DNA from: Gemmatimonadota bacterium
GTDB taxonomy: Bacteria > Gemmatimonadota > Gemmatimonadetes > Gemmatimonadales > Gemmatimonadaceae
Assembly: GCA_031372565.1 (NCBI GenBank)
Contig: JANMLN010000171.1
Location: 1-36,303 of the forward strand
Direction: 5' to 3'
DNA length: 36,303 nucleotides
A program made the translations under genes and the position numbers. Within the stretch, counting starts at the first letter, position 1. Each line of letters starts with the position of its first letter. The notes beneath the pieces were generated by a model. The model was not told the DNA's origin, did not search any database, and saw nothing but the letters and a program-made list of their open reading frames with translations. Shown here in pieces: positions 1 to 33,694 of this stretch.

Positions 1-1215
1 GCCGCATTGCTTGAGCCAATGGTGAGTCACGGATTCGCGGCCGCGCGCTTCCGGAACGGGCTCGTCACGGCCCAGATCGCCCTCTCCATGGCGCTGCTCA
101 TCTCGTCGGGGCTCTTCCTCAAGAGCCTCGCGAATGTCAGCCGCGTGGACCTGGGCATCCGCGTGGACGACATGGTGACCTTCGACATCAGCCCGCGTCG
201 CACCGGCTACGACAGCGCGAGCACGACGGCGCTGTTCCGTCAGGTGGCGGAGGAACTCCGCGCCATTCCGGGCGTCACCGCGGTCACCGAGTCCGTGGTG
301 CCGCTGCTGGCCGGCGACAACTGGGGCAACAGCGTGAAGGTGCAAGGCTTCCCGCACGGTCCCGACGTGGACGACAACTCGCGGTTCAATGCCGTGGGCC
401 CCGGCTTCTTCTCCACCATGGGGGTGACGCTCACCTCGGGACGCGAGTTCACGCCGTCGGACGAGGTGGGGGGCGCGAAGGTGGCGGTCGTGAACCAGGC
501 GTTCGCCGACAAGTTCAGGCTCGGCCGCGACGCCGTGGGCAAGTTCATGACCAACAGCGACACGGGGGCGCTCAACATCCAGATCGTCGGGCTGATCCCC
601 AACATCAAGTACAGCAGCGTGAAGGACTCGGTTCCTCCCGTGTTCTACCTCCCCACGCGGCAGGATGCCCGCATCGGGTCGCTGTACTTCTACGTCCGCA
701 CCTCGCTCGCCCCGGCCGAGTTGCTCGGTACCATCCGCACCGTGCTCAAGCGCCTGGCCCCCACGGTACCGGTGGAGGACCTGCGCACCATGCCGCAGCA
801 GGTGAAGGACAACATCTTCCTCGACCGGATGATCAGCGTGCTGACCGCCGCGTTCGCCTTCCTGGCAACGTTGCTCGCGGGGGTGGGTCTCTACGGCGTG
901 CTGGCGTACTCCGTGGCGCAGCGGACGCGCGAGATCGGGGTGCGCATGGCGCTCGGCGCCGACGGTGGCACCGTGCGCCAGATGGTGCTCAGGCAGGTGG
1001 GCGGCATGCTCCTCGTGGGCGGCGCCATCGGCATCGTGGCGGCGCTCGGGCTCGGGCGCGCCGCGCAGTCCCTCCTCTACGGCCTCCAGGGACACGATCC
1101 CCTGGTCTTCGGCGCCGCCGTGGTGCTGCTCGCCCTCATCGCGCTCGGCGCCGGATGGATTCCCGCCCGTCGTGCCGCCATGATCGATCCCATGCTGGCC
1201 CTCCGGTACGATTGA
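1..1215 (+). CDS. ABC transporter permease, MacB/FtsX family (ADOP-type duplicated permease); 5'-partial, C-terminal half only
   Basis: Frame is open from base 1. Motifs 'LVTAQIALSMALL', periplasmic 'VGPGFFSTMG..L..GREF', 'GLYGVLAYSVAQRTREIGVRMALGA' and terminal 'IPARRAAMIDPMLALRYD'. Stop TGA 1213-1215 overlaps the next ATG. Confidence 0.93.
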   Translation, partial: AALLEPMVSHGFAAARFRNGLVTAQIALSMALLISSGLFLKSLANVSRVDLGIRVDDMVTFDISPRRTGYDSASTTALFRQVAEELRAIPGVTAVTESVVPLLAGDNWGNSVKVQGFPHGPDVDDNSRFNAVGPGFFSTMGVTLTSGREFTPSDEVGGAKVAVVNQAFADKFRLGRDAVGKFMTNSDTGALNIQIVGLIPNIKYSSVKDSVPPVFYLPTRQDARIGSLYFYVRTSLAPAELLGTIRTVLKRLAPTVPVEDLRTMPQQVKDNIFLDRMISVLTAAFAFLATLLAGVGLYGVLAYSVAQRTREIGVRMALGADGGTVRQMVLRQVGGMLLVGGAIGIVAALGLGRAAQSLLYGLQGHDPLVFGAAVVLLALIALGAGWIPARRAAMIDPMLALRYD

Positions 1216-2459
1216 TGGACATCGCGCGAGAGAAGCCCAGGCGACGCGGGCGCAACGTGGCCATTGGCGTTGGCGTGGCGCTCCTCGTGATCGCCACGGT
1301 GGCGGTGTCGGGGCTCAAGCCCGCCGCGCCCACCGTGGAGCGCAACGCGATCCTCATCGACTCGGTCAGCCGGGGCGACGTGGTGCGCGAAGTGCGCGGC
1401 CCGGGCACGCTCGTGCCCGAGCAGATCCGCTGGATCACCGCGCAGGCCTCGGCGCGCGTCGAGCGACTGGGCGCCGAGTCGGGGCGACAGGTGGCGGCCG
1501 GCGACGTGCTGCTCGAGCTGTCGAACCCGGACCTGCGCATCCAGACCATGCAGGCCGAGCAGCAGGTGCAGCAGGCGCAGATCGCGTTGCTCAACCTCAA
1601 GACGTCGCTGCGCAGCCAGGTGCTCACGCAGGAAGGACTCGTGGCCACCACGCGCACGCAGTACCTGAGCGCGATGGCCGAGGGCGCGGCCGCCGACTCG
1701 CTCGGGGCACGCAAGCTGCTCTCGGTCATCGAGTCCACCAATCGGCGGGCGCAGGCTGAGGAGCTCACCGTGCGCTATCGGGTGGAGCGCGAGCGGCTGG
1801 ACCTGATGCGCCAGTCGATCGATTCGCAGGTGGCCGTGCAGGCGGCGCAGGTGGTGCAGTTGCGCGCCATTGCCGACAACCAACAGGCCCGGCTCCGGTC
1901 GCTGTCGGTGCGGGCCCCCGAGGCCGGCGTGCTCCAGGACCTCACGCTGCAATTGGGCCAATGGGTGCCCGAGGGGACCACGCTCGCCAAGGTCGTGCAG
2001 CCGGGCAAGCTCAAGGCCGTGCTGCGCATTCCGGAGTCGCAGGCCAAGGATGTGCAGCTCGGGCAGCCGGCCATGATCGACACGCGCAACGGCATCGTGA
2101 AGGGCCACGTGATGCGCAAGGATCCCTCGGCGCAGGGCGGGTCGGTGACGATTGACGTGGCGCTCGACGGACCGCTGCCGGCCGGCGCCGTGCCCGACTT
2201 GAGCGTGGACGGCACCATCCAGGTGGACCGGATGGTGAACGTGATGCACACCGGCCGTCCCTCGGGGAGCGCCGGCGCCGGCACCATGGGCCTCTTCCGG
2301 CTGGAGGCCAATGGCGACGAAGCCATCCGCGTGCCGGTGGAGATCGGCCGCGTGTCGGTGAATGCCATCGAGATCCTCCGTGGCCTCGCTGCAGGCGACC
2401 GGCTGATCGTGTCCGACATGACCCCGTACGTGAATGCCAACCGCGTGCGGATCAAGTAG
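1215..2459 (+). CDS. Efflux transporter periplasmic adaptor subunit (HlyD/MacA-type membrane fusion protein)
   Basis: ATG at 1215 overlaps the upstream stop (TGATG). N-terminal basic stretch plus TM helix, 'RGDVVREVRGPGTLVPE', coiled-coil hairpin, 'VRAPEAGVLQ' lipoyl half-motif, C-terminal 'GL..GD.LIVSD'. Confidence 0.92.
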   Translation: MDIAREKPRRRGRNVAIGVGVALLVIATVAVSGLKPAAPTVERNAILIDSVSRGDVVREVRGPGTLVPEQIRWITAQASARVERLGAESGRQVAAGDVLLELSNPDLRIQTMQAEQQVQQAQIALLNLKTSLRSQVLTQEGLVATTRTQYLSAMAEGAAADSLGARKLLSVIESTNRRAQAEELTVRYRVERERLDLMRQSIDSQVAVQAAQVVQLRAIADNQQARLRSLSVRAPEAGVLQDLTLQLGQWVPEGTTLAKVVQPGKLKAVLRIPESQAKDVQLGQPAMIDTRNGIVKGHVMRKDPSAQGGSVTIDVALDGPLPAGAVPDLSVDGTIQVDRMVNVMHTGRPSGSAGAGTMGLFRLEANGDEAIRVPVEIGRVSVNAIEILRGLAAGDRLIVSDMTPYVNANRVRIK

Positions 2460-2490
2460 TCCGCTTCGCCCACCCCTTCAGGACGCTCTC

Positions 2491-3204
<714 letters not shown>

Positions 3205-3206
3205 GC

Positions 3207-3260
3207 CGGTGGTGGGGTGGCCGACTCAGCCCGTGATCGGCGCCGCCCACGGCACCACCG
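3207..3260. terminator. Extended GC-rich hairpin between convergent genes; possible terminator or 3' stabiliser
   Basis: CGGTGGTG (3207-3214) pairs with CACCACCG (3253-3260), with inner GTGG/CCAC, CCGA/TCGG and TCA/TGA pairings. Starts 3 nt after the ATPase stop. No clear U-tract. Confidence 0.4.
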
Positions 3261-3315
3261 CGTACGTCACGAGTACCTCGTTGCCCGCTGCCGATTGGGC
3301 TTCCTTTCCCGCCGT

Positions 3316-4512
3316 CTAGGGATTCTGCGGGGCGGGAGCGGTGGGTCGCACGAGCGGCACACGCGGTCGGCCTCCCGGCCTCGGCGACGTCCGCTGCACC
3401 CGCGGCCCCTCCAGCTGCAGGTCGTCAAGCCCTTCCTTGGTCTCGATCACCCGACCGTCGATTGCCACGTACGTGATGTCCACGCGCCGATTTCGCGCGA
3501 GGTCGGTCACGTTCCCCTCGGCCGTCTTCAGGTTGGCCTTGCCCAGCGCCTGGAGCTGGATGCGCTCCGCCTCGATCCCCTTACCCACCAGGAACGCCTT
3601 CACCGCCTCGGCCCGGCGCTGTGACAGCGCCTGGTTGTACGCGGCGTTGCCGCGCGAGTCGGTGTTGCCTGAGAGGGTGACGCTCACGCCGGCATAGCGG
3701 AGCATCGAGTCGGCCGCGGCCTGCAGCACGCGCTTGCTGCCCGCCGACAGCGTGTCGAGGTTGAGGCCGAAGTGCACGTTGGGGGGCACACCGGTCAGCA
3801 GCTTCGGCGACGTGACCTTCACGTCGGGCACGGTGGACGGCGCCGGATTGCGGGCGATGTACAGCGTGTCGACGCGTGGCGGCGTCAGCTGTACCACCCC
3901 GGGCGGCGGGCGCGAGATGATCCCCACCGCGCCCATCGCGGCGACCTCGGCCAACCGCTGCGGCTTCTCGTTGGGGCACGACAGGTACCCCGCCGCCTCG
4001 AGCGCCGCGCGAACGAGGTGCAGTTCGAGCGCCGCCAGTTCCGCCGACACGCGCTCGAGGTCCTTCGAACCGCGCAGGTCGTCGGCCAGCTTCCACAGGT
4101 CCGCGCGAACGCGTGGTGCGTACGTCGGCGACGCGGTGCCTTGCGCCAACGCGGGCACCTCGCCGGTCTCGAGCGCGCGCGTGAGCTTCACCGCCTCGCC
4201 AAGCGCGTCGCTCGCCACGCTCCCCTTCGCATTGCCCTCGTACGTCTCGCGGGCGAGCGAGACCCACCGCTGCGCCTTCTCGAACGGATACTGCGACAGC
4301 GTCGGCAACCGGCGGCGCGCTGCGAGGAGCCGCCCCTGCCAGAGGTCCAGGGCCGCCTGGTCGCCGGCGATGACCTCGTCGGACAGCCGCTCGCTCACCG
4401 GGTGCAGCGTGGTGCGCTCCTCCCCCTGCGCGCCGAGCGACGGCGCCAGCAGCAGGAAGGCCGAGAGCAGCGTGGCGCGCCGCGCGCGCGTGGACATTGG
4501 CATGGGATTCAT
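3316..4512 (-). CDS. OmpA-C (peptidoglycan-binding) domain protein with signal peptide and helical N-terminal domain, about 398 aa
   Basis: ATG at 4512 overlaps the TGA of the giant gene. Signal peptide 'RARRATLLSAFLLLAPSLGA|Q'. OmpA-C motifs 'VHFGLNLDTL', 'GNTDSRG..AYNQALSQRRAEAV' and 'NRRVDI'. Pro/Arg-rich tail. Confidence 0.9.
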   Translation of the reverse strand: MNPMPMSTRARRATLLSAFLLLAPSLGAQGEERTTLHPVSERLSDEVIAGDQAALDLWQGRLLAARRRLPTLSQYPFEKAQRWVSLARETYEGNAKGSVASDALGEAVKLTRALETGEVPALAQGTASPTYAPRVRADLWKLADDLRGSKDLERVSAELAALELHLVRAALEAAGYLSCPNEKPQRLAEVAAMGAVGIISRPPPGVVQLTPPRVDTLYIARNPAPSTVPDVKVTSPKLLTGVPPNVHFGLNLDTLSAGSKRVLQAAADSMLRYAGVSVTLSGNTDSRGNAAYNQALSQRRAEAVKAFLVGKGIEAERIQLQALGKANLKTAEGNVTDLARNRRVDITYVAIDGRVIETKEGLDDLQLEGPRVQRTSPRPGGRPRVPLVRPTAPAPQNP

Positions 4513-7500
4513 CACTTGCTCCCGGCGACCGCGGGCGCCGAGGCGCCGCGCCCAAAGAGGGATTCGTCGAACTTGAAGGCGAAGTCGAGGTAGGCGCCCT
4601 TCATGGTGAAGCCGAAGCTGCTCAGGTCGCGATCGCGGTAGCCCCACATGTTGTACCCCACCGCGAGACGCAGGTTGGTCAGGATGATCCGGCCCACTTC
4701 GGCGCCCAGCCCGTACTTGCGCGCGGCGCCGCCGTCGTTGAAGAGCACGGAGCCGATGAGCCCCGCATCCCAGCGCGGAGTGAGGTCGTAGATGGCGCGC
4801 GCCATCAGCAACTGCGCGTCGCTGGTGGTGACGAACCCTTCGCTGCGGTCGGTGGCGTACTTGGCCGCCAGGCGCCCGCTCAGCACGAGCCGGGCGTTGG
4901 CTTGGTAGTTGAGCAACCCGGCCACGATGTGCGCGTCGAACCCTGTCGCCGGCAGCCCCACCGGCGTCTGGTTCTCGCGGCGCAGCTCATAGCGCAGGAG
5001 GCCGTTCCAGCGGTTCTCGTCGGTCTCGCGCCACGCCACGCCGAAGTGCGCGCGGAGCCGATCGCCGAGGGTGCCCTGCTGGTCGAACAGGCCGCGCGTG
5101 AGCAGCGTCCAGTCGCGCGAGAGCTTCTGCGCGATGCCGGCGCTGAACAGGTAGCCGTCCTGGCCGTTCTGGCGGCGCCACTCGGCCCGGCTCGTCACCT
5201 TGGTGGTGGCGGGACGGGTGTACTCGATGGCGCCGGTGACAGCCGTGGCGTTGCCGAGCCCCGCGCCGACCAGCGGTGCAACGCGCTCGAGGCTGGTGTT
5301 CACCAGCAGCCCGGGCCCGAGCGCCCACCGGTTGCGCAGGCCGATCGACGCCTCGGCGTCGCGACCGTTGATGGCGTCGCGTTCGCGATACTCGCTGAAG
5401 ATCTGCGCGTTCTTCATGTAGTCGGCATCGATGCCGAACACGGTGTTCTGCTGCGTCTGGCTCGACGTCAGCCCGTACGGGCCGGCGTAGCCGTCAATCC
5501 ACTCGTGGCGGGCATAGGCGCGGGCCCGGCTGGCGATCACGTACTCGCCACCGAGCGAGGCGCGCGTGGCCGAACCGCCCATGTCGCGCTCCAGCTCGCC
5601 GAACACCGACGATCGGTCGCTCCCAGGCAGCCGCGACGTGACCTTGGCGCGGAAGGCGGAGAACGAGGGCGGTACGAGCAGCCCGGTGGTGGCCGCCGAG
5701 GCGACCCCGGTCTCCTTGGCCCACCGAAGGCCCAGCTCGGCGCGGATCATCGTACCGAACGACCGTTCGAGGGTGACGAGCGCCCCGTCGCGCTTGCCCC
5801 CCGTGCGCAGGTCCTCGGTCTCGATGGCCTCGGCCAGCAGGCGCAGCTCCTTCGTCATGGCGAGCGTGGCGCGCGCGCCCAGCTCCTGCCGCCCGGTGCC
5901 GAAGGTGGCCGAGCGGTTGGCGAAGCCGATGCCGGCGCGGGTGCCGTAGACGCGCGCCTCGAAGCCGTCCTGCGCGTGCCGCAGCTCGAACCGGCCGGCG
6001 CGGCCGTCCTGGCCCGCCATGCCGGTGGCCTGCGCGACCTCGACGATGCCCACCGTCCGATCGGCGAAGCGGATGCTGGCGTTCGCGCCGAAGAGCTTGA
6101 GTGAGTCGAGCGGATTCTCGTCGAGCACCGCCACGCCGCCCACTTCCACGCGATCACCGAGCTTGACGGCGCCATCGGCGCCGTACGTGTTGTAGGCGAT
6201 GCCCCCCTGGTCCACCTCGTACGTGACGCGGATGGAGACGGGGTTGAGGTTCGCGTCGAGGCTGGCCACCGGAGCCCGGAAGAGCAGCCGGCCGGTGAAC
6301 GGCTCCACCGTGTAGTCGGCAAAGCGGGTCATGGGCCGCGACTGCAGGATGAGCGCCGGCTGGTTGCGATCGCGGGTGAGGATCTCCACGCGCTCGCTGT
6401 TGATCACCGCGTTCTGGCGCGACAGGAAGTACGGACCGGAGATGCCGCGCCCCGGCAGCTCGTCGATCACCTGCGAGATGGTGCCGCGCGCCGCATACAC
6501 GTTGGCGAGGCCGCGCGCGCCCTCCTGGTGCAGCTGGATGCCGTTGAGCGAGCGGTCCCACGAGCCGAGCAGGCGGCGCTCGTCGCTGCGCGCGGTGGCG
6601 AAGTCGCCGAACCGGTAGTACGAGGCGCCGTCGTCGATGCGCGCGTACAGCCGGCGCTGCGACTGGCCGTCGAACTCGCGCAGCGAGCCGTCGCCGTAGG
6701 TCGGGAACATCTCGTCGGGCTGGATGTCGCGGAACTGCGTCCGGTTCGGGTCGCGCTCGGAGTCAAAGCCCAGGGTGAGCAGCTTGTCGCCGAGCACGGT
6801 GCCCTTGGCGAAGAGCGCCGCGCGCAGGCCGCCGCGCACCTTCCCCGAGTCCTGCGAGAACGACCAGGCGGTGAGCCGCGACTCAAACGCCTCGTCGGGG
6901 GCACTCGTGACGAGCGAGCCGCCCGAGAAGGCCGCGAGGTCGATGCGTCCGGTGACGAGGCCGGCCACCACGAGCGCGCGGTTGGCGGGGGTGAAGGTGA
7001 TGGGGAGCGCCGACTGCGCATTGGGCGACGTGACGCGGATCTCGCCACGTCCCGGCTGCCCGGGCACGAGGAGCTTGAACATTCCCTCGCCGTCGGTCAC
7101 CACCACCTGCGCGCCCTGGTCGGTGCGATCCACGTCGCCCACGAGCCAGCGGCCGAGCGACGCCTCGAGCGTGACGGGCACCCGTCCGGTGAGCTTGTTC
7201 CCCTTGGCGTCGAACAGCTTGACCACCACCGGAATGGCGCTGGTGCCGTCGGCGGGATAGGCGGTGCCCGTGAGGCCCAGCTCCACGCGCCCGGCGCTGG
7301 TGCGCGTGCCGGGCATCAGCTGCGCGGCGCGGAGCGGCGTGGCCGGGAGGTTCGACGTGGCGTCGCTCAGGATGGGCGCGGCAATCGGCGCGGCGGCCGA
7401 GAGCACCGGCACCGCGGTGGGCGCCTCGGTGCCTCCCATGGGCGCGGCGCCTTCCATGCGCGACAGGTCGCCCTCGACCACCGGCATGGTGGGCGCGGCC

Positions 7501-10500
7501 TCACGAACCGGCACGCCGCCGCTGGCCGGCGGCGCCGTGGGCGGCGTCACCCCCGCGGCGATCGGCGCTCCCGCGCTCGTCGGCGCCACGGGCGGCATGG
7601 CCGCGCGGATCGAGTCGGCATTGGACCAGTCCACGGCCCGGGTGCTGTCCGGCTTCTGCGGGATGATGGCGGCCTCGGGCTCGCTCTTCCGGCGGCGCTC
7701 GCGAACCGCCAAGAGCACCTGCGCGTCGTTGGCCGTGGCGAAGTCGGCCTTGCCGAGCTCGCCCCCCTTCACGTCCACGAACCGGGAGGCGGCGTCGAGG
7801 GCGTTGCGGTTGCTCGTGACCACGAGGCGCGCGCCGACGGGCAGCGTCGTGGCATCCACCTTCACCACGTGCATCCCCGACGACACGTCCCAGAAGTTGT
7901 ACTTGCCCTCGCCGTCGGTGATGGCCGAGGTGCCGTCCTCGAGGTAGACGCGGACGCCCGGGATGCCGAGCTCACCCTGCGTCTGCATGCGCTCGTCGGC
8001 GCAGTCGCACGAGGCAAACACCTTGCCCACGATGACGCCGCGATCGCTGAAGACGCCGCGCCGCACGATCACCGCCGCCGCCGCGTTGTTGGCCTGCACC
8101 ACGAGGGTGCCGCTCGATGCGGTGGCGCGGTTGACGGACGTTCCGGCCCGGATGTTGGCGCCGATCTTCACGCGGTAGCTGACGTGCTTCTCGTCGCCGG
8201 GGTTGAGGGTCCCGAGCGGCCAGGTGAGGGCCGGGCCGGCGCCACCCGACGGGTCGGCGAACGCCACGCCCTCGAGCCGGCTGGTGCCCAGCTGGTACAG
8301 GAAGCCCGCCGGCAGCAGGTCGTTGATCTGCACGTTCGGCACCGGCGAGCGGCCAATGTTCTTGACGGTCACCGTGTAGTCGTTCACGCCGCCCACTTCC
8401 ACCACCGGCGACCGCGACACCTTCTGGATGAAGAGGCGGAAGTCGCCGACCACGCTCACCGTGGCGCAGGAGCGGTTGTTGGCGGTGTTCGCGTCGAGCG
8501 CGGCCGCCCCCACCGCGCAGTTGGTGATTGCGCCGTTGAGGTTCGCGGCGGCGCGCACCTTCATCGTCACGAGCACCGAGTCGCCGTCGGCGATCGGGGT
8601 GCCGGTGGAACAGGTCACCACCACGCCGGCCACGGCGCACGTCCATCCCGCGCCGGTGCCACTCGTGAACGTGAGGCCGGCGGGCAACGTGTCCACCACG
8701 GTCACCGTGCCCTGCGTGGGCACGTTGCCGCGGTTGGCCACGCGGAAGATGAAGTCGTTGTCGATGCCGCTCGTGAACTGCGCCCCGACGGCCGTCTTCA
8801 GGAGGTCGAGGTCCACCACGCCGCGCACGACGCTCGCCTTGCTCGCGCGGTTGTTGGTGGTGTCCACGTCGCCCGCCACGCTCGCGGCCACGCGGTTGGT
8901 CACGCCGGGGAACGCTGCCTTGCTCACCAGCGCGGTGAGCGTGATCGGCGTGGAGGCGCCCAGGGCGAGCGCCGCGGTGCTCGTGCAGGTCACCACCGCG
9001 CCCGCCGCCGCGCAGCCGAAGCCCGCGCCGGCCGCCGACTGGAAGGTCAGCCCCGTGGGCAGCGAGTCCACCACTATGAACCCGGCCGGTGCCGGCAGCG
9101 AACCCACGTTGGTCACCGTGAGGGTGTAGGTGGCGCTCGTGCCCACGTTCAACGTGTCGCCGCCGGTCTTGGCCACGGCCACGTTCACTTGGCCGGTGAC
9201 CACGGTGCGCACCGAGTCGCGGTCGTTGCCGCTCCCCACGTCGCCCGGCGTCAGCACGCGCGCGATGTTCGACACGGCGGGCACCGCCGTCACCCCCGGC
9301 GTGACCGCGAGGGTCACCACGGCCGAGGCACCGGCGGCGAGCGGCACCGTGCGCAGGCAGCTCACCACGCCCGCGCTCGCCGTGCACGCGAACGACGGGC
9401 CCGTGGCCGACACGAACGCCAGCGACGCCGGCAGCGAGTCGGTCACGCGAATGGTGTCGGTGGTCGCCCCGGTGCCGATGTTCTGCACGGTGAGCGTGTA
9501 GCTGGCCGCGGTGCCCACGCCGAAGGCGCCCACGGCAGCCTTGGTCAGCCGCAGGTCGGGCGTGGCCGCGACCGGCACGGCGCCCGTGGTGCCCGCATTG
9601 TCGCCCGTGACGGTCTCCCCCGGCGTGCTCACCCGTGCCGCGTTTGTCACGCTCGGCAGGGCGGCGGCCGCCACGTTCACCGTGACCGTAACGAGGCTCG
9701 AGTCCAGCCCGGCGATCGGCGCCGGCTGCGTGCAGGTCACCACGGTGGCCGCGCCCGGCGCCGCGCAGCTCCAGCCGGCGCCCGTGGCCGAGACGAAGGT
9801 CAACCCGGCGGGCAGCGTGTCGAGCAACGCGGTCACCCCGCTCGTGGCGATGGTCGCGACGTTGCGCACCACGAACTGGAACTGGGCCGTGCGACCCACC
9901 GCGAAGGCGCCGATCGCGCGCTTCACCAGCTGCACGTTGGGCGCGGCCGAGATCGTCACCGGCGCGCTCGACGCCGAGTCGTTGGCCGGCACGAGGTCGC
10001 CCGGGGTGCTGGCCCAGGCGCGATTCACGATCGAGGCCGGGGTGCCGACGCCGACGATGGCGCGCACCACGACCGATGCCGTGTCGCCCGCGACGAGCAC
10101 GGCCGCCCGCGCGCAGCTCACCACGCTCCCGGCCGCCGAGCAGCTGAAGGTGGACGGTTGCGCCGAGAGGAACACCAACGCTGTGGGCAGCGTGTCGGTG
10201 AGCGTCACCGCGCCGGTCGTGGGCCCGGACCCGCCGTTGCTCACGCGGAGCCGGAAGCTCGCCGTGTCGCCCACCGCGTAGCTGGCGGCCAGCGCGGTCT
10301 TGGTCATCGCGAGGTCGGGCACCACGGTCACGCCGATGGCCGGCGTGGTGGCGGTGTTGTTCGTGGCGTTCACGTCGCCCGGCGTGGTCACGGTGCCGCT
10401 CACGATCACGCTGGGGAGTGCCCCCGGCAGGACGTTCACGCTGATGTTCACGAACGAGGAGTCGCCCGGCACGAGCGGACCCGGGTTGGTGCAGGTCACC

Positions 10501-13500
10501 ACCTGGCCCACCGCGCTGCAACTCCAGCCGGTGCCGCTCCCCGACGCGAAGCTCAGCCCCGGCGGCAGCGTGGTGGAGTAGGTCAGCGGGGCGGTGGTTG
10601 TCCCCGAGCCCACGTTGCGGATCGTGTTGCGCAGGGTCGCGGGCTGACCCACCACGAATGCGCCGAGCGGCGCCGTGGCGAGCGAGAGGTCCGGGGCGAC
10701 GCCCACCGGCACCGCCGGGGTGGCAGCCGAGTCGTTGACCGCCGCCGGGTCGCCCGGCGTGGCAACCACGGCCGAGTTGGTCACGCTCGGCTGCGCCGCC
10801 GGCAGCACGTTGACGGTGAGCGTCACGACCGAGGAGTCGGCGATGGCGATGGCCGTGGGCGAGGTGCACGTGACCAGCTGCGCGACCGCGCTGCAGGTCC
10901 AGCCCGTGCCGACGCCGCTCGCGAAGGAGAGGCCCGTTGGGAGCGGGTCGGTGATGGTGACCAATGCACTCGTGGCGGCCGACCCGGTGTTGCGGACCAC
11001 CAGGCGATAGGTGGCCGTCGCACCCACCACGAAGCTCCCGACCGCCGTCTTGGTCATGGACAGGTCGGGGGCGGTGGTCACGGGGATGGACGGCGTGGCC
11101 GACGTGTTGTTGGCGCCCACCGGATCACCCGGCGTGGTGACCGTGGCCGAGTTGATGACGCTGGGCAGGGCGCCCGCCAGCACGTTCACGGTGAGCGTCA
11201 CGACCGATGAGTCTGCCGGCAGGATGGGGCCGGCGTTGGTGCAGGTGACCGCCTGCGCCACCGCGCCACAGCTCCACCCGGTGCCCGTGCCCGACACAAA
11301 GGCGAGCCCGGTGGGCAGCGTGTCGGTGAGAGTCACGGCGCCCGTGGTGCTCCCGGAGCCCATGTTGCGCGCGACGATGCGGAACGTGGCCGGTCGCCCG
11401 ACGATGAACGCGCCGACTCCCGCCTTGCCCAGCACCAGGTCTGGCGCCACGCCGATGTTGCCCAGCGGCGCGCTCCCCGAGTTGTTGCTCGCGTTGGGAT
11501 CGCCGGTGGCCGACACCCACGCGCGGTTGGCCAGGGTGCCCGTGGCGTTCGCGGCCACGAGCGTGGTCAGCGTGATCGCCACCGAGTCGCCCACCAGGAG
11601 CGGCGTGGCGCGCGTGCACGTCACCACTTGGCCGCTCACGCCGCAGGTGAAGCCGCCACCCGATCCGAACACGAACGAGAGCACGGTCGCCAGCGTGTCG
11701 GTGACCGTGACCGTGCCGGTGGTCGCGGCGGACCCGAGGTTCTGCACCGAGAGCGTGTAGACCTGATTCTGCCCGGCCACCGGGTTGGTCGAGCCGGCCT
11801 TGAGCAGGCGCAGGTCGGGGGCCGTGGTCACCGGCGACGTGGCCGTGCCCATGTCGTTCGTGGCGTTCGGGTCGCCCGCCGTCTGCCCCCAGGCCCGGTT
11901 GGTGGTGCTCGGCAGCGCCGGCGCGCCCACCGTCACGGACACGGTGACGACATCGGAGTCGCCCGGAGCGAGTGGTGGCGGCCGCTTGCAACTCACGACG
12001 CCGGCGGCGGCGCTGCAGGCGTACGCGCCGCCCGAGGCGCTCACGAAGGTCATGCCGGCCGGGAGCGTGTCCACCACGCGCACCGAGTCGGACGTGGCCA
12101 GCGAGCCCACGTTCTTCACCACCAGCTGCCACGACGCGGGCTGCCCCACAATGAAGGCGCCGGTGGCCGCCTTGGTGAGCTGCACGTCGGGAGCGCCACT
12201 CACCGGAGTGCCGGCCAGCGTGGTGCTGTTGTTGCCGCCGTTGGTGTCGTTCGGCGTGGTCACGGTCGCCGTGTTGCTCACGGTGGAGGCCGCCGACGGA
12301 TCCACGAGCACGGTGAGCGTCAGCACGCCCGAACCAGCGGCCGCGATCGGGCCGCTCGAGGTGCACGTCACCGTCTGGCCGGCGACAATGGTCCCGGTCG
12401 CGCTGCAGCTCCAACCGGTGCCGCTCGCGGAGACATATCCGATCCCCGGCGCGAGGTTGTCCACGACGGTGATCGTGCCCGTGGTGGCGCCCGTGCCGAT
12501 GTTGTTCACCGTGAGCTGGTAGCTCGCCGGTTGCGAGCGCACAAACGGAGTGAGGGCGATCTTGCTGACCGTGAGGTCGGGGGCGACCACCGCGAGCGTG
12601 GAGGTGACGCCGCGATCGTTGGTCGCGTTGGCGTCGCCGACGGTGCTCACGGTGGCGGCGTTGGTCACCGAGCCGAGCGCGGCGGCGGTCACGTTGGCGG
12701 TCAGCGAGAGGATCACGTCAAGTCCGGCCGTGATGGCGGGCTGCGTGGGCGGCGCCGGGCGCACGCACTGCACGATGTCGCGCGCGGGCGCGGGCGTCGT
12801 GCCGATCACGCTGCACGTGAAGGTCGCGCCCACGTCACCGCCGCTCACGAACGTCATCCCCTCCGGCAGGGTGTCGGTGACGGTCACGGCGCCGGTATTG
12901 CCCCCGGTGAGCGGCGGCACCGGCGAGACGTTGGACAGCGTGATCGTGAACGTCGTCTGGCTGCCCACGTTGATGGGACCACTCCCCGTCTTGCCCAGCG
13001 CGAAGTCGGGCACCGAGGTCACCGGGAGCGGCGCCGTCACCGCGGTGTCGTTCGCGAAGATGAAGTCGCCCGGCGTGGACACCGACACGATGTTGCGAAC
13101 GGTCGGGAAGGCGGTGAGCCCCACCGCGGCCGCGATCGGAAAGGAGACCGCCGCACCCGAGGCGATCGGGCCCGCGCTGGTGCAGGTCACGATCTGTGCC
13201 ACGGCCGAGCAGCTGAAGCCGCTGCCCCCCGAGCCGCCGGCCGAGTAGGTGAGCCCCACCGGCAGCGAGTCGCGCACGGTGATGGCGCCGGTGGTCGGGC
13301 CCGCCGACACGTTGGTGACGCTGATGTTGAACGTCGCCGTGTTGTTCACGATGATCGCGCCCGCCGGCGCCTTCGCCACGGTGAGGTCGGGAATGGACGA
13401 CACCGTCACCGGCCCCGTCTGGAAGGTGTCGTTGGTGGGATTCAGGTCGCCCGGCGCGCTGACCGTCACCCGGTTCACCTGGCTCGGCAGCGCCGACACC

Positions 13501-16500
13501 GTCACGTCCACGAACAGCGGGAAGGTGACGAGCGTGTTCGCCGCGATCGCGGTGGCGCGCGTGCAGGTGACGATGTCGCGGCCCGAGAAGGTCCCCGTCA
13601 CCGAGCAGGCGAAGCCGTTGCCGCCGGAGCCGGTGACGCGGTACGCCATGCCCGTGGGCAGCGTGTCGGTCACGGTGATCGGGCCCGGTTGGTTCCCGGG
13701 CGAGACGTTCTGCACGCGGATCGTCCAGCTGGCCGGACGGCCGACGACGAAGAGCGAGTCGGGCGCCTTGGAGATCGCGATGTCGGGCGAGGCGATGACC
13801 GCCGTGGGTGCGTCACTGCCGAAGTCGTTCGCCGGGTTCGGGTCGCCAGGCGTGCTCACCCGCACCGTGTTCGTCACGCTCGGTAGCGCCAGCGCCGTCA
13901 CGTTCACCACGAGGGCGATGGACACCGTGCCGCCCGCGGCGATGGGGCCCGCGCTGGTGCAGGTGACCACTTGGCCGAGAGCGCCGCAGGTGAACCCCGT
14001 GCCGATGCCGCTGCTGAAGCCGAGCCCGGCGGGCAGGGTGTCGGTCACCGTGATGGTGCCGGTGGTGGACGACGAGCCCACGTTGTCCACCTGCAGGGTG
14101 TAGGTGCCGGTGAAGCCCGTCACGAACGACCCGCTGTGCGACTTGAAGACGGCGAGATCCGGCGTGCCGATCACCGGCGTGGGGTCGGTGGCGCGATTGT
14201 TGGCCGTGCTCGACTCCCCGGGGGTGCTCACGCGCGCCACGTTCGTGGCGGTGCCGATCGCGCCGGCCGCCGGCGTCACCTGGATGCCGAGCGTGCTGTT
14301 GCCGCCGGCCGGAATGGGGCCGGCGTTGGTGCAGCTCACCACCTGCCCGGTGGCCACCACGCCCGTCGTGGTGCAGCTCCATCCGCCCCCGGTGGTGCCG
14401 ACGAACGCGACGTTCGCCGGGAGCGAGTCCACGAGGGTCACCACACCGGTGGTGGCGGAAGTGCCGGCGTTGGTGACCGTGAGGTTCCACGTCCCCGGCT
14501 GCCCCACCACGAAGCTCGACGGCGTGTGCGTCTTGGCAATGGTGAGGTCGGGGCGCTGGACCGTGCGCGCCGGCGCGGACCCGGTGTCGTTCGACGGATT
14601 CAGGTCACCGGGCGTGGCTGACACGACCTGATTCGTCACCGTCGCCGCAGCCGTCGAATCCACGCTCACGGTGAGCGTCACCTGGGCCGAGTCGCCGGCG
14701 GCAAGCACCGGCGCCGCCGGTCGCGTGCAGCTCACGTTCTGAGCGACCGCGCTGCAGCTGAAGCCGCCCCCCGTGCCGGAGACGAAGGTGAGGCCCGTGG
14801 CGAGCGCGTCGGTGAGGGTGATGACCCCCGTGGTCGGTCCCGGCGACACGTTCACCACGGTGAGCAGATAGCTCCCGGTGCCGCCCACGGCAAAGGCGCC
14901 ACTGAACGACTTCCGCACGGTGAGGTCGGGCACGCTCACCACGCCGATGGGTCCCGCGAAGCCGCTGTTGTTGGCGGGGTTCTGATCGCCCGGCGTGGAC
15001 ACCCACGCGCGGTTGGCGACGCTCGGGATGGCCGCGGCGGTGGGGGTCACCGTGAGCACGATGGACGCCGAGCCGCCGGGTCCGATCGGCCCCGGACTGG
15101 TGCAGGTGACCACGGGGGCGCTGAACGAACAGCTGAACCCGCCGCCCGCCGCAGAGCCGAAGGTGAGCGAGGCGGGCAGCGTGTCGGTGACGGTGATGAC
15201 GCCCGAGGTCGCGGCGCTGCCGGTGTTCTGCACCGCAAGCGTGAAGGTGCCCGCAACCCCCACCGCGAGCGTCCCGCTCGCCGTCTTGGTCAGCCCGAGG
15301 TCGGGGACGCCGAGCACGGGAGTGGCCGTCACGCGCGCGGTGTCGTTGGTCGCGTTCAGGTCGCCCGGCGTGGTGCCACGCGCCAGGTTGTTCACTGCCG
15401 GCAGCGCCGCGCCGCCAACAGCCACCGTGAGCACGATCGTGGCGGAGCCGCTCTGCGCCAGTGCCGGTACCGCCGGTCGCGTGCAGGTGACGAGCGGCGC
15501 CGCCGACACGCAGCTGAAGCCGCCCCCCGCGGCCGACACGAAGGTGAGGCCCGTCGAGAGCGTGTCCACCACGGTGATGGTGCCGGTGGTGGCCGAGCCG
15601 CCCACGTTGGTCACGGCGATGTCGTAGGTGGCGTTGGCCCCGATGCTGAAGGTGCTCGACGCCGTCTTCACCAGCTGGATGTCCACCGCGCCCACCACGG
15701 GCACCGCCGGCGACGACGCGACGTTGTTGCCCGCATTGGGGTCGAGCGGCGTGGACACGCGCGCGCGATTGGTGACCGCGGGCGCTGCGGCGGCCAGCAC
15801 GTTCACCGTGAGTGTCACGACCACGGAGTCGCCGACGGCCACCGGCGTACCTGCCGGGCGGAAGCAACTCACGACCTGGCCGGTGTTGGCGCAGGTGAAG
15901 CCGCCTCCCGTGGCGCCGGCGAAGGTGAGCCCCGTCGGCAGCGTGTCGAGCATGCGCATGCTGTCGGCGGCTGCGGCCGAGCCCACGTTCTTCGCCACGA
16001 GCGAGAAGGTGGCCGTGGACCCGATCACGAACGGCGAACCGGTGGTCCCCTTGGCCATCTGCAGGTCGGGCACGCCGATGGTCACCGTGAGGTCGCTGGC
16101 CAGGTTGTTGCCCGGCGTGTTGTCGCCGCCGCCGGAGACGCGCGCCCGGTTGGTGAAGCTGGCCGGCGCGCCGGTGGGGACGGTGACGTTCAGGGTGATG
16201 GGCGCCGCCGCCGCGGAGGCCGCGAGGCCGCCGCTCAGCGTGCACTGCACCACCTGCCCCGTGATCGTGCAGCTCCAGCCGGTGCCGCTGGCCGAGGTCG
16301 GGACGATGGGCGCCGGCACGGTGTCGAGCACCACGATCGGCGCGGCCGTGGTCCCGCCGTTGCCGACGTTGGTGACGGTGAGCGTGTAGGCCCCGGTGCC
16401 GCCGCGCGAGAAGTCGGCGGGGTGAGTCTTGGTGATCGTGAGGTTGGGACCCGCCACGGGCGAGAGGGTCGGCGGGGTGCCACCGCCGCTCGTCAGCGAA

Positions 16501-18440: not shown

Positions 18441-19370
18441 TCAGGTCGACACGAGGGTGCGCCAGTTGTGCGTATCCGGCAGCGCCCCCTTGGCGTACTC
18501 GAGATACCGCTTCTGCAGCGCGAGCGTGATCGGCCCCGCCTTCCCGGACCCGATCGGCTTGCGATCCACCGTGGCGACGGGCGTGACTTCGGCGGCCGTA
18601 CCGGTGAAGAAGATCTCGTCCGCCCCGTACAGCATCTCGCGCGGAATCTGGCGCGGCTCGATCGTGATGCCGATGTCGTTGGCGAGCGTGATGATCGAAT
18701 CCATCGTGATGCCGGGGAGCAGCGTGCCGTCGAGTGCGGGCGTGTACACCTTGCCGCGCCAGACAACGAAGATGTTCATCCCGGTGCCTTCGCTCACCAG
18801 CCCGGCGGGGCTCAACCCGATCGCTTCCTGGAAGCCGTTGCGCTTGGCCTCCCACTTCATGAGCTGGCTGCTCAGGTACTGCCCCGCCGCCTTGGCCATG
18901 AGCGGGTAGGTGTTGGGATGCGCGCGCTGCCAACTGCTGACGCAGGCGTGCACGCCGGCCTCGAGCGCGCCGGCGCCCAAGTAGGTGCCCCACGGGAAGG
19001 CGGGCACGTACGTCTCGACGGGACTGCCATCGGCTTCAAGGCCGGCAGCGCCGTAGCCGAGCAACACGACCGGGCGGAGGTAGCAGCCCGTGAGCTTGTT
19101 TCTCGACACGGCATCGAGGCACGCCTTGGTGAGCGTCGCCATGTCGTGCGTGACGTCCAGGTTGTACGTGCGCGCCGAGTCGAGCAGACGGCGCAGGTGA
19201 TCCTCGAGGCGGAAGATCGCGGGACCGTCCGGCGTCTCATAGCAGCGGATCCCTTCGAACACGGAGGTGCCGAACTGGACGGCGGTCGCGAGCACGTGCA
19301 GCTGCGCGTCCTCCCACTTCACGAACGTTCCGTCCTTCCAGATCCAGTCGGCCTTGGTGATCGGTGCCAT
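18441..19370 (-). CDS. ilvE: Branched-chain amino acid aminotransferase (PLP class IV)
   Basis: 'WIWKDG.FVKWEDA', 'FGTSVFEGIRCY', 'FRLEDHLRRL', PLP lysine region 'AKAAGQY', 'EGTGMNIF', 'LLPGITM', 'ADEIFFTGTAAEVTPV'. Confidence 0.93.
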   Translation of the reverse strand: MAPITKADWIWKDGTFVKWEDAQLHVLATAVQFGTSVFEGIRCYETPDGPAIFRLEDHLRRLLDSARTYNLDVTHDMATLTKACLDAVSRNKLTGCYLRPVVLLGYGAAGLEADGSPVETYVPAFPWGTYLGAGALEAGVHACVSSWQRAHPNTYPLMAKAAGQYLSSQLMKWEAKRNGFQEAIGLSPAGLVSEGTGMNIFVVWRGKVYTPALDGTLLPGITMDSIITLANDIGITIEPRQIPREMLYGADEIFFTGTAAEVTPVATVDRKPIGSGKAGPITLALQKRYLEYAKGALPDTHNWRTLVST

Positions 19371-21230: not shown

Positions 21231-24200
21231 TTACCGCCCGAGCTCGCCCAGTACCTGGTCAAGCGTCTCCACCACGCGGTCCGCGTCTGCCTCGTCGAAC
21301 GGCATCGGTGGCCGGATCTTGACCACGTTGTGATGCGGGCCGTCGGTGCCGAGCAGGATGCCGTGATCGCGCATCCGGTTGGAGACGTACGAGGCTTCGT
21401 CGCCGGCAGGCTCCAGCGTATCGCGGTCTCGCACCAGCTCGATCCCCAGAAAGAGCCCTTCCCCGCGTACGTCACCCACGATCTCATGCCGTGGCGCAAG
21501 CTCCCGTAGTCCGGTGAGCAGGTGCGTGCCCACCCACGCCGCGTGCGCCTGCAACTGCTCGCGCTCCATCACATCCAGCACGGCGTTCCCCACGACGCAG
21601 CTCACGGTGTTGCCGCCGAACGTGCTGAAGTACTCCATGCCGTTGTCGAATGCATCGGCAATCGCGCGCGTGGTGACCACGGCCGCCAATGGATGTCCGT
21701 TGCCGAGCGGCTTGCCCATCACCACGATGTCGGGCACCACGCCATGCGCCTGGAAGGCCCACGTGTGCGAACCGACACGACCGAGCCCGGTCTGGACCTC
21801 GTCGGCGATGCAGAGGCCGCCCGCAGCACGCACGGCGTCGTACACCCCCGACAGGTACTTCGGGGGGAAGAAGAGCTGGCCGCCCACGCTGGGGCAGGTC
21901 TCGGCAATGAAGCCCGCGAGTTCGCGACCCTGCGCGTCGAGTCCGGCAAGCTGCGTGGCGACATCACGCGCGTACTTGGCTCCGGCCTCGGCGTCGCTGC
22001 GCTTGTACGCGCCGCGATAGCTGTCGGGGAGCGGCGCCACGTGGACCCAGTCCGGTGGGCCCGCGCCGCCCGGGCCATTGTGCTTGTACGGACTGATGTC
22101 GACCAGCGAGGTGGTGTTGCCGTGATACGCCGCCTCGAGCACGAGCATGTCCTTCCGCCGCGTGGCTGCGCGCACGAGCCGCAGCGACAGTTCGTTGGCC
22201 TCGCTCGCCGAACTCACGAGATACGCCACGCGGAGCGGTTCGGGCAGGGAGGCCGTGAGTCGTTCCACGTACTGCTCGAGCGCGTCGTGCAGGTACCGGG
22301 TGTTGGTACTGAGCACCGCCATCTGCCGCGCGGCCGCCTGCACCACGTGCGGATGCGCGTGCCCGACGTGCGGCACGTTGTTGTAGGCGTCGAGATAGCG
22401 GCGCCCGTCGTCATCGTACAGATACTGCTTCCAGCCGCGCACGATGCGCACCGGGCGGCGGTACGCGATGCTGAGCGACGGCCCGATCACGGCGCGACGG
22501 CGCGCGAGCGTATCGGCAACGGGTGGCAGCGGCTTCGGGAACAGGTCGGCGCGGAGGCCGACGATCAGGTTCGGGTCCGGCGACACCGAACGCCACACGT
22601 CGCGTCGCGTGGGCGTGCCCACGCCGGGAAAGTTCTTGCGCTCGTCCAGCATGTCGGTGATCACCTGCAGGTGCAGGTGCGGCGGCCAGCCGCCATTCAC
22701 GGCCGCGCTGCCCAGCGTCGCGATCTGCTGCCCCTTGGTCACGCGACGCTCGGCACGCACGGCCTCGAACGACGTCGGATCGAGATGGCCGTACAATGTG
22801 AAGAACGGTGTCCCGTCGTCGGTCTCGTGCCGGAGGATGAGCAATCCGCCGTAGTCGAGCGGCAGATCGTGATGCTCGATCAGGGCCACCGTACCGTCCA
22901 TCGGCGCGCACACGGGGGTTCCCGCCGCGGCAAACAGGTCGAGCCCGATGTGCACGGTGCGATGTTCGCTCGTGGTGCCATCACCGCCGGCAAAGGCGGG
23001 CGTCGCGTACAGCAGCCGCGGCTCGTCGTAGCGCCCGACCGCGACGCGTGCGCCGGCCTCGCGGAGTTCGTCGTCGACGCGAGCGGCAAACGGCGTTGCT
23101 TCGTTCTGCCGCGCATCGCCGTGGACCAGCGCACTCCCGATGCTCAGGTCGAGCACATGCACAGGCTCGGCGTGCAGGTCGATGCCGAGCACCGAGGCAA
23201 ACGACGCCGTGTTGGCGGCGAGCCACTCCCGGACACGGGTACTCCCCGGCATGGGCTCGAGACCGCACGCGCTCCGCAGCGTGCCGGCCGCGAACGCGAA
23301 CGGCACCTTGGCCAGGCGCGGCAGCGTACGCGCCAGCGGCGCCTGACTCACACCGAGATACTCGTTCCCGGGGTCGGCGCGCTGCTGCTCGGCGGCAAGG
23401 ACGGCGCTCATGCACAGGCGGAGCAGCGTGAGGCCCCACAACGCCTGCAGCTCCGGTTCGCCGATCGGGCGTACGTCGTGGTAGCCGCGCGTCATCTCCC
23501 ACGCGACCGAGAGCGGATCGGGGGCATCGAGCATCGCGTACGCCATGGCAATCGCCAGGTCGCCGATGGTGATGCCGTGCACCATGTCGCCAAAGTCGAG
23601 CAGCGCCGTGACGTGCTGCGCATGGTCATGCAGCGTGGTGCCGCCGCCGACGAGCACGTTGTAGTCGTTCAGATCGCCATGGATGACGCTGCGCGCGAGG
23701 TCATCGAGCCGTGGCGCCGTGTGGGCATCGAAGCGATGGATGATGACATCGAGTGCGACGCGCACGACCGGATCGGTGAGCAGCCCGCGATGGCGATCGA
23801 CCACGGCCCGACCCTGCGCGAGATCCCAGTGGAATTCCCGGTGCAGCGCCGGGTCGTCGAACCCGTCGAGAGCGCTCGTCAGCTGCGCCACCGCCGCTCC
23901 GAACTCGCGCCAGAGCGCCGGCGTGCGGTGGGCGATGCTCCCGAGTGGACGGCCGGGCATGGCCGAGATCGCCCACGCGAGGTGTTCGCGACCATCGGAA
24001 CCGGAGATGGTCGCCAAGGTGGTCCCGTCGGCCATCGGCACGACGCGCGGCACCAAGGGGCACCGCTCGGCCACGTACTGCATGGCGCGCTGCTCCGCGT
24101 CGAGAAAGGCGCGCGCCTCGTTGGCGTTCGCCACCTTGAGCACGAACCTCGGCGCACCGTGCACATGCAGCAGCAGGTTCTGGTCGCGCTCGCTGGGCAG

Positions 24201-24287
24201 CGCCGACGCGGACGCCTCGACTCCGAGATGGTCGCGCGCGAACCGGGTGGCGTCGGCAGCGCTGAGCGTCGGTACGGAGGGCGTCAT
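21231..24287 (-). CDS. Tri-domain fusion: APH/hydroxylysine-kinase-like phosphotransferase, M23-like domain, class III PLP enzyme (phospho-lyase/aminotransferase), about 1,018 aa
   Basis: Kinase 'LPSERDQN', 'HGDLNDYNVL', 'LDFGD'. M23 'HIGLD', 'TLYGHL', 'PHLHLQ'. Class III 'YLDAYNNVPHVGH', 'AYHG', 'IADEVQTGLGR', 'MGKPLGNG', 'KIRPP'. Start placed at ATG 24287. Confidence 0.9.
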   Translation of the reverse strand: MTPSVPTLSAADATRFARDHLGVEASASALPSERDQNLLLHVHGAPRFVLKVANANEARAFLDAEQRAMQYVAERCPLVPRVVPMADGTTLATISGSDGREHLAWAISAMPGRPLGSIAHRTPALWREFGAAVAQLTSALDGFDDPALHREFHWDLAQGRAVVDRHRGLLTDPVVRVALDVIIHRFDAHTAPRLDDLARSVIHGDLNDYNVLVGGGTTLHDHAQHVTALLDFGDMVHGITIGDLAIAMAYAMLDAPDPLSVAWEMTRGYHDVRPIGEPELQALWGLTLLRLCMSAVLAAEQQRADPGNEYLGVSQAPLARTLPRLAKVPFAFAAGTLRSACGLEPMPGSTRVREWLAANTASFASVLGIDLHAEPVHVLDLSIGSALVHGDARQNEATPFAARVDDELREAGARVAVGRYDEPRLLYATPAFAGGDGTTSEHRTVHIGLDLFAAAGTPVCAPMDGTVALIEHHDLPLDYGGLLILRHETDDGTPFFTLYGHLDPTSFEAVRAERRVTKGQQIATLGSAAVNGGWPPHLHLQVITDMLDERKNFPGVGTPTRRDVWRSVSPDPNLIVGLRADLFPKPLPPVADTLARRRAVIGPSLSIAYRRPVRIVRGWKQYLYDDDGRRYLDAYNNVPHVGHAHPHVVQAAARQMAVLSTNTRYLHDALEQYVERLTASLPEPLRVAYLVSSASEANELSLRLVRAATRRKDMLVLEAAYHGNTTSLVDISPYKHNGPGGAGPPDWVHVAPLPDSYRGAYKRSDAEAGAKYARDVATQLAGLDAQGRELAGFIAETCPSVGGQLFFPPKYLSGVYDAVRAAGGLCIADEVQTGLGRVGSHTWAFQAHGVVPDIVVMGKPLGNGHPLAAVVTTRAIADAFDNGMEYFSTFGGNTVSCVVGNAVLDVMEREQLQAHAAWVGTHLLTGLRELAPRHEIVGDVRGEGLFLGIELVRDRDTLEPAGDEASYVSNRMRDHGILLGTDGPHHNVVKIRPPMPFDEADADRVVETLDQVLGELGR

Positions 24288-24395
24288 GCCTGAGAAGATG
24301 GAGAGCGCCGCCGTGTTGCGGCAGCGCCCACCGTGCGCTGGCGCGCGCGTGCACACCACCGCATGATGGAGTCGTCCCTTTGCGCCGGAGAGCGT

Positions 24396-26127: not shown

Positions 26128-26254
26128 GGCAGGATGCGACGAGGGGAGAGGAACGGTCAAAGCTACGCGGCCGCTGCGCGCCGAGGCGGTTCGGCATGAA
26201 TGGCGCTACTATCTGCCGGAGCGCGCGTCCGTCTCACTCGCCATCCCATTCGTC

Positions 26255-33645: not shown

Positions 33646-33694
33646 TGGCGGATGCGGCTCAACAGCAGCGCGCTCGCGCGTTAGCTTGGGCTGC

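Follow-up and report, generated by a model that had tools for sequence, protein, structure and literature searches.

The routes known for the export and holding of very long fibers of immunoglobulin (Ig)-like domains in Gram-negative bacteria are type V secretion, type I secretion with retention modules, ushers, and the type IX secretion system. Here we analyze a locus on a 36,303-nucleotide stretch of DNA (the window), which is one whole contig (JANMLN010000171.1) of a 4.4-Mb genome bin in 201 contigs and has its closest relatives in the Gemmatimonadaceae. It encodes a giant protein in which a signal-peptide-like N-terminus and a head are followed by a stalk of DUF11 repeats, a two-domain connector, a linker, an Ig-like domain, and a putative giant outer-membrane β-barrel, and, in the adjoining gene, an OmpA-family partner (Table 1). 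The segment studied, positions 4512–8444, corresponds to residues (aa) 3195–4504 of the giant protein; its last 929 aa, the Ig domain and the barrel, are called the module below. On balance, we favor a model in which a surface fiber is anchored in the outer membrane, and probably also conducted through it, by the barrel, with the partner stapling the unit to the peptidoglycan.

How does this locus compare with the systems already described? As in type Va and Vb systems, an N-terminal Sec signal, a long passenger, and a C-terminal outer-membrane barrel lie in one chain, and a split version exists in which cargo and barrel are encoded by adjacent, translationally coupled genes. Unlike these systems, the barrel is predicted to have ~36–40 strands rather than 12 or 16, an Ig domain stands ahead of it, the stalk consists of CLIPPER and SdrD_B Ig-like domains rather than a β-helix, and the conserved docking end of the split forms would be the C-terminus of the cargo, not its N-terminus. 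A type Va system has a 12-strand barrel of the Autotransporter family, and a type Vb system a 16-strand Omp85 barrel with POTRA domains and a two-partner secretion (TPS) domain on the cargo. Here, the last 830 aa have no Pfam match at E up to 10, the barrel region has no NCBIfam match, 32–40 long strands are predicted, and the pre-barrel domain is Ig-like; Pfam scans found no Autotransporter, ShlB/Omp85, POTRA, or TPS match in the module and no two-partner-type hits on the stalk. Inverse autotransporters (type Ve; intimin and invasin) start with a 12-strand barrel followed by Big_1 domains, whereas here the Ig domain precedes a barrel several times larger, and no IAT_beta or LysM match was found. 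The usher FimD is the top structural match of the barrel, but at a root-mean-square deviation (rmsd) of 9–14 Å and only 1–3 Z units above unrelated barrels. Chaperone–usher systems (FimD and PapC, rmsd 6–14 Å) further differ in the 24 strands of the usher and in their donor-strand-exchanged subunits, in place of one polypeptide of covalently stabilized domains; there is no Usher Pfam match, no PapD-like chaperone or pilin family was found among the 22 window open reading frames (ORFs) scanned, and the operon consists of the giant gene and the OmpA gene. Foldseek also retrieved SprA (8gl6_A; E 3.7e-6, TM-scores 0.18/0.10), with no sequence-family match. Judged by these profile and fold comparisons, the system, fused or split, does not belong to the type Va, Vb, or Ve families, and probably not to the chaperone–usher family either.

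Three published lines of work come close from other directions. Acinetobacter sp. Tol 5 carries the giant fiber AtaA on an outer-membrane barrel, and its operon partner TpgA combines an N-terminal barrel-associating part with a C-terminal OmpA-like peptidoglycan-binding domain (PMC12523085). AtaA has a trimeric 12-strand barrel, in contrast to the monomeric giant barrel predicted here, and, unlike TpgA, the window's partner has a family-specific, helical N-domain without a Pfam match, whose binding to the barrel we propose by analogy. Domain DUF11 has been renamed CLIPPER, with an isopeptide bond demonstrated, and described as a fibrillar adhesin domain (10.1101/2025.04.25.650565). The Gram-negative example in that work, B9T28_05395 of A. 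silvestris, likewise joins a CLIPPER/DUF11 stalk to an OmpA-like anchoring domain, whereas here OmpA is encoded separately and a giant barrel would be the membrane element; the text of that paper mentions no barrel, and another survey of fibrillar adhesins also gives OmpA as the anchor without one. Finally, Solan et al. (PNAS 2021; PMC8346858) predicted from contact maps uncharacterized single barrels of 38 and 40 strands (families 003 and 002, with 849 and 1,194 homologs), exceeding the 36 strands of SprA, which a 2026 preprint gives as the largest known (solved) barrel. The up to 40 strands of the present model are compatible with these families, the likeness being one of strand number alone; the study neither gives them a function nor connects them with DUF11 stalks or OmpA. 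The literature that we searched on DUF11/CLIPPER, fibrillar adhesins, OmpA anchors, and barrels contained no functional description of the module.

The giant ORF has a coding-type GC content at third codon positions (0.95), and a database protein (P0003) is identical to its product, its length of 4,482 aa being due to another start call. The module occurs once in the window's own genome. A preliminary description of the window had divided the C-terminal region into a Cys-free DUF11 variant, after a switch of repeat style near aa 3195, an SdrD_B-like domain, a Pro/Ala-rich linker, an Ig-like domain, and a barrel region with distinctive motifs, and our analyses bear out these assignments. The stalk matches Pfam DUF11 with 763 bits over 21 stretches, and its repeats hold two Cys residues each (three in the last of the 21), while the first connector domain has none. 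This domain scores 51.2 bits against the Pfam DUF11 (PF01345) cut-off of 24.6, NCBIfam TIGR01451 gives 30.3 on DUF11 against a cut-off of 24, and the best structural match is the CLIPPER structure 9ifr_A, a CnaA-like Ig fold. In the second connector domain, the SdrD_B (PF17210) match falls below threshold (24.3 versus 29.7 bits, E 3.7e-5), yet the orthologous domain of relatives exceeds it (39.8–57.8 bits), and an AlphaFold2 (AF2) model of aa 3195–3700, a construct that does not include the barrel (mean predicted local distance difference test score, pLDDT, 79.5), contains a complete and confident CLIPPER domain and SdrD_B-like sandwich plus a short helix. Weak CarboxypepD_reg matches also fall on the SdrD_B-like domain. 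Together, both connector domains resemble in structural comparison the CnaA+CnaB pairs of the Gram-positive pilins EbpB, LrpA, BcpA, and SpaD. The linker contains 22% Ala and 17% Pro over 133 aa (aa 3446–3578), versus 13% and 6% across the whole protein, and is largely disordered in the model (residues 257–381, pLDDT ~40). For the Ig-like domain, weak Big_1 and Invasin_D3 Pfam matches coincide with a Big_1-type fold.

Amid the otherwise variable linker lies a conserved linear motif, L-x-x-x-x-S-N-L-P-x-x-P. The core in its exact form, [SC]NLP, is present in 24 of the 179 relatives with sufficient upstream sequence, with ~0.02 expected per 260 aa, and looser variants are also visible by eye. 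The motif lies 15–35 aa past the signal peptide in stand-alone barrel proteins (see below) and ~134 aa before the PADG Ig domain in relatives that carry an additional Ig-like domain. It may act as a latch, be a point of cleavage, or bind a partner. A role as a strand complementing a neighboring domain was considered and rejected: in the AF2 construct without the barrel, the CLIPPER and SdrD_B-like domains are complete and the motif is disordered (pLDDT ~40), and there is therefore no sign of strand complementation in that construct. At the opposite end of the protein, the N-terminal head differs among relatives. In the window, its aa 31–110 (17697–17936, minus strand) weakly match GLEYA, a PA14-like lectin domain (E 0.0069, 17.1 bits versus a cut-off of 26.2), and this sub-threshold match hints at a carbohydrate-binding tip.

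Against PDB sequences, phmmer and the family profile yielded nothing for the barrel; an invasin, matched through the Ig domain at E 0.001, and a Vibrio porin at E 0.026 were the only hits. Weak matches to Porin_4, OMP_b-brl, or BBP2_2 appear in some relatives, and the nearest protein-atlas clusters, leads only, are unnamed outer-membrane proteins of 844–860 aa. An AF2 model of aa 3576–4504, built with a 62-sequence alignment (mean pLDDT 80.1, predicted TM-score (pTM) 0.72), is all-β by DSSP, with 40 strands of at least 7 residues between model residues 111 and 911. Consecutive hairpins with short turns at both sides account for 32 of these (residues 354–911), no long linker breaks them, and pLDDT is mostly 80–97 over residues 370–890, with two segments below 50. 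The first strand of the barrel follows immediately on the Ig domain. Foldseek matches are outer-membrane barrels only (TonB-dependent receptors, SlpA, LptD, FimD, SprA, and MtrB), and porins align across model ranges from ~107 to 911, which would fit adjoining first and last strands, i.e., a closed barrel. The predicted size is ~36–40 strands.

The motifs quoted for the barrel in the preliminary description, YGDGS (aa 3777), PGRGISGPY (3858), NSERVEILTRDRNQP (3876), DY..EP..GRLLF, and FKFDE (4484), are all present and sit at columns of the 62-sequence alignment that are invariant or nearly so; they are therefore more than chance. Except for FKFDE, they lie within the module's most conserved stretch, aa ~3755–3937, which holds 20 of the 37 columns that are invariant in alignment A1. 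In the AF2 model, this stretch comprises a low-confidence loop (residues 185–213) and four short strands (304–341, pLDDT 70–86) between long strands, the latter four corresponding by DSSP to the GPY...DY segment. We regard it as a candidate plug or insert. Its loop carries the module's most conserved motif, RDIQPDE..P.YGD (6600–6690, minus strand), with several invariant Asp and Gly residues and a pLDDT below 50, a value typical of segments that are ordered only with a partner or ligand.

The module family is broad. An exhaustive HMMER search with the module as query returned 2,833 representative clusters with E no higher than 0.001, of which 1,263 reach 1e-30 or lower, and a genome scan with one genome per species gave at least 600 matching stretches, 572 of 600 being confirmed by tblastn. 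The best 80, which we refer to as related loci, come from Gemmatimonadota, Pseudomonadota, Verrucomicrobiota, Nitrospirota, Acidobacteriota, Thermodesulfobacteriota, Abditibacteriota, and others, placing the family in at least seven named phyla. Within Gemmatimonadota its occurrence is patchy: 23 of 151 sampled genomes carry the module, and two of 31 others of the window's own family.

Is the C-terminal segment an independent unit? The preliminary description had viewed it as a separate platform gene fused to the stalk, with similar modules occurring as separate proteins beside DUF11 and OmpA genes in other diderm bacteria, and had suggested a tabulation of homolog lengths and neighbors. In the best 150 of the 2,833 representatives, the sequence before the module measures 900–1,300 aa in 70 cases, 500–900 aa in 26, 1,300–2,000 aa in 14, at least 2,000 aa in nine, 150–500 aa in 15, and less than 150 aa in 16; this last class is mostly fragment-like, several members opening with signal peptides by eye. 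Among the related loci, 25 are cut at the 5' end and 55 are intact, and of the intact ones 48 are fused (37 with 200–1,400 aa before the module, 11 with more) and seven are stand-alone. Stand-alone Ig-plus-barrel proteins with their own signal peptides (by eye) include P0081, P0094, P0116, P0245, and P0252. A long DUF11/SdrD_B stalk gene lies directly upstream of the barrel gene in all seven stand-alone loci and an OmpA gene downstream in six, matching the arrangement described there; homologs are thus not always fused to the stalk. Two of these loci, L075 and L081, have the end of the stalk gene overlapping the start of the barrel gene by ATGA.

The split loci also reveal where the protein divides. 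All seven stalk proteins, three of whose genes run off the contig end, terminate in the Cys-free DUF11 and SdrD_B-like pair followed by a short Pro-rich tail, with 44% identity over 253 aa (E 8e-65) between the window's connector and the C-terminal end of the stalk of L072, a locus of the cultured Undibacterium terreum CGMCC 1.10998. The barrel genes encode their own signal peptide, linker, Ig domain, and barrel, in this order. The connector is kept on the stalk protein, and therefore the gene break falls in the linker. Among fused proteins with at least 450 aa upstream, the connector precedes the module without exception (146 of 146; median gap 116 aa). The conserved core consists of connector, linker, Ig domain, and barrel, and the separable unit of Ig domain and barrel (~930–1,090 aa), with the Pro-rich linker as the natural breakpoint. 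The proposal of an independent gene thus holds in part: a separate unit exists in seven of 55 intact loci, but it is the Ig domain with the barrel, not the whole 1,310-aa segment.

In an unrooted FastTree phylogeny of the module (49 loci plus the window, 50 rows; 31 loci that were cut or held a partial module left out), the seven stand-alone forms fall into one clade of eight (support 99), the eighth member being a fused acidobacterial protein, and the window lies in a clade of 11 from Gemmatimonadota, all of them fused (support 100). At least two changes are needed for the stand-alone state on this tree. Because the tree is unrooted, it shows neither fission nor fusion, and fission in one proteobacterial lineage fits these sequences no less well than fusion in that of the window. 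Both gene forms do exist, but fused ones predominate and the split ones all fall in a single clade of Proteobacteria; the phylogeny therefore lends no support to a recent fusion in the lineage of the window. Many proteobacterial loci (L047, L029, L030, L050, L058, and others) show a further arrangement, with a second giant DUF11/DUF7933 protein encoded behind the fused barrel protein of ~2,000 aa, past the barrel or OmpA genes; the one in L047 (13900–21369) contains 12 DUF7933 and seven DUF11 stretches. One barrel may thus serve more than one fiber.

The partner is recognized by Pfam OmpA (PF00691; 52.9 bits versus a cut-off of 27.2) and consists of a signal peptide, the helical N-domain (~170 aa), a Pro-rich hinge, and the OmpA peptidoglycan-binding domain. 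Judging from its ATG, which has one base in common with the giant gene's stop codon, it is translationally coupled to the giant gene. Partners in other phyla share this N-domain (E 2e-15 to Undibacterium; 26-row alignment), and the full-length protein matches one from a Geobacteraceae bin at E 3e-35. With a home-made hidden Markov model (HMM), an OmpA gene was found downstream of or fused to the module in 30 of the 67 loci with room for one, a lower bound. More than 150 aa extend beyond the module in 28 of the best 150 representatives, and 17 of these extensions contain one or more OmpA domains; such fusions to the C-terminus of the barrel place that terminus in the periplasm.

We propose that the window encodes a self-contained surface-fiber unit. 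The giant protein would be exported by Sec, and its C-terminal ~810 aa would form a very large β-barrel inserted in the outer membrane, with the invasin-type Ig domain seated on the barrel's N-terminal strand and the Pro/Ala linker acting as a flexible joint. Beyond the linker, the pilin-like connector of CLIPPER variant and SdrD_B-like domain would form the conserved base of the fiber, from which the 21-repeat CLIPPER stalk, tipped by the N-terminal head, would extend. The barrel would anchor this fiber and probably also conduct it through the outer membrane, following the logic of a classical autotransporter when fused and of two-partner secretion or an usher when split. The co-translated partner would bind on the periplasmic side and tie the unit to the peptidoglycan, as TpgA does for AtaA.

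Several observations weigh against this model. The barrel family is known from sequence and predicted structure, and the fit to known barrels is poor (TM-scores 0.13–0.26, rmsd 6–15 Å). If the barrel termini are periplasmic, as is usual, an Ig domain abutting the first strand means that the chain must cross through the lumen upstream of it, a passage that we infer. Surface exposure of the stalk is argued from analogy and the sub-threshold GLEYA match. The split systems have no covalent link between stalk and barrel, so that docking of the stalk has to be assumed; in the AF2 model of aa 3195–3700, the conserved linker motif stays disordered and docks onto neither the connector nor the Ig domain; and the home-made HMM detected no OmpA gene in 37 of the 67 loci with room.

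A more far-reaching version, which we put forward tentatively and hold to be distinctly less probable than the model above, is that of an undescribed secretion-and-anchoring pathway: a ~40-strand barrel would let pass folded, disulfide- and isopeptide-locked Ig domains and then hold the fiber by its connector, with the conserved insert and the linker motif as gate and latch, working as one chain or two. If true, such a barrel would be larger than any solved outer-membrane protein. Conversely, the barrel might be a static platform only, the stalk being exported by other machinery such as β-barrel assembly machinery (BAM)-assisted passage or an unlinked secretion system. The short loops on both predicted faces, an insert that could fill the lumen permanently, the Ig domain directly abutting the first strand, and the lack of a detectable POTRA, TPS, or other translocation-specific domain would all suit a platform. 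We nevertheless consider this rather unlikely: no other secretion genes are linked, the window's MacB-type ABC and HlyD genes being convergent and not conserved in the best 80 loci; in split forms with separate signal peptides, the stalk must somehow reach the barrel and cross the membrane; and a barrel of this size would seem unneeded for anchoring alone.

The stalk may also be placed on the other side of the membrane. One could imagine a DUF11 array that stays in the periplasm or against the inner side of the outer membrane and, together with the barrel and the partner, tethers this membrane to the peptidoglycan, as has been proposed for OmcB, a Cys-rich DUF11 protein of Chlamydia. However, 21 Ig-like domains and a head would far exceed the width of the periplasm, CLIPPER arrays are described in surface fibrillar adhesins, the head varies as expected of a ligand-binding tip, and the patchy distribution is unlike that of a core envelope component. 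Such a scaffold is improbable in our view, even though the barrel termini and the partner would be periplasmic, the Ig domain adjoins the first strand, and the Cys pair in each stalk repeat would be oxidized in the periplasm. SusC-type receptors have a CarboxypepD_reg-like domain ahead of a plugged barrel, and a loosely similar large, gated import pore, for which the stalk captures substrate, would accommodate the weak CarboxypepD_reg matches, the TonB-dependent receptors at the top of the Foldseek list (E ~4e-7), and the internal insert as a plug. Yet the TM-scores to these receptors are 0.13–0.17, no Plug or TonB_dep_Rec Pfam match appears at E up to 10, the window holds no TonB/ExbBD or substrate-processing genes, and the module is linked to adhesin-type stalks and OmpA rather than catabolic genes; we find an uptake channel more doubtful still. 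The least probable of the alternatives, to our mind, is that the AF2 topology misleads, with at least two smaller barrels, or an open β-sheet, in place of one closed barrel. Multi-barrel chains are predicted to exist (PMC8346858), every solved barrel fits with high rmsd, and two segments have pLDDT below 50. This reading is opposed by the pTM and by the high pLDDT across residues 370–890, by the 32 hairpin strands without a long linker between them, by porin alignments reaching from the first to the last strands, and by the single 38- and 40-strand barrels that the same contact-map study predicted in large families, possibly others than the present one.

The surroundings of the unit contain further genes. 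A MacB-type tripartite pump set (an FtsX/MacB_PCD permease, an HlyD-family adaptor, and an ABC ATPase) occupies positions 1–3204 on the plus strand, convergent to the OmpA gene. The ORFs of the best 80 loci gave three generic ABC matches and one aminotransferase match, and none to MacB, HlyD, or the ORF at 18441–19370. The MacB, HlyD, and FtsX genes are thus not conserved beside the module and were therefore rejected as parts of the system. On the other side of the giant gene, a 1,100-aa ORF (21231–24533, minus strand) joins phosphotransferase (APH), Peptidase_M23, and class-III aminotransferase domains, and two paralogous Amidohydro_3 genes (26081–28006 and 33542–35428, both plus strand; 343 and 324 bits) lie ~5.5 kb apart.

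Table 1. Features of the giant gene and its partner in the window.
Feature	Residues	Position	Strand	Basis or remarks
Giant ORF	4,504 aa	4512–18026	-	Signal-peptide-like N-terminus, ~500-aa head, DUF11 array, connector, linker, Ig domain, barrel
Stalk of 21 tandem Cys-pair DUF11/CLIPPER repeats	529–3185	8472–16442	-	Pfam DUF11
Connector domain 1, Cys-free DUF11/CLIPPER variant	3201–3316	8079–8426	-	Pfam DUF11
Connector domain 2, SdrD_B-like (CnaB-type) β-sandwich	~3326–3431	7734–8051	-	
Short helix, then Pro/Ala-rich disordered linker	~3432–3575	7302–7733	-	Composition, pLDDT ~40, split junctions
Conserved linear motif within linker	3552–3566 (core SNLP, 3558–3561)	7329–7373	-	
Ig-like domain, invasin/intimin Big_1 type	3576–3681	6984–7301	-	
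Putative giant outer-membrane β-barrel	3682–4490	4557–6983	-	Last strand conserved KFDE, then 14-aa tail
Most conserved stretch of module, candidate plug/insert	~3755–3937	6216–6764	-	Alignment A1
OmpA-family partner gene	398 aa	3316–4512	-	Pfam OmpA

What is the relevance of this arrangement? The module family pairs covalently stabilized Ig-domain fibers with a giant, predicted barrel. It is widespread, has neither a family model nor a solved relative, and its predicted size equals or exceeds the present record. Naturally occurring gene forms, be they fused, split, or fused to OmpA, show where domain boundaries and likely contacts lie, and thus offer handles for experiments.

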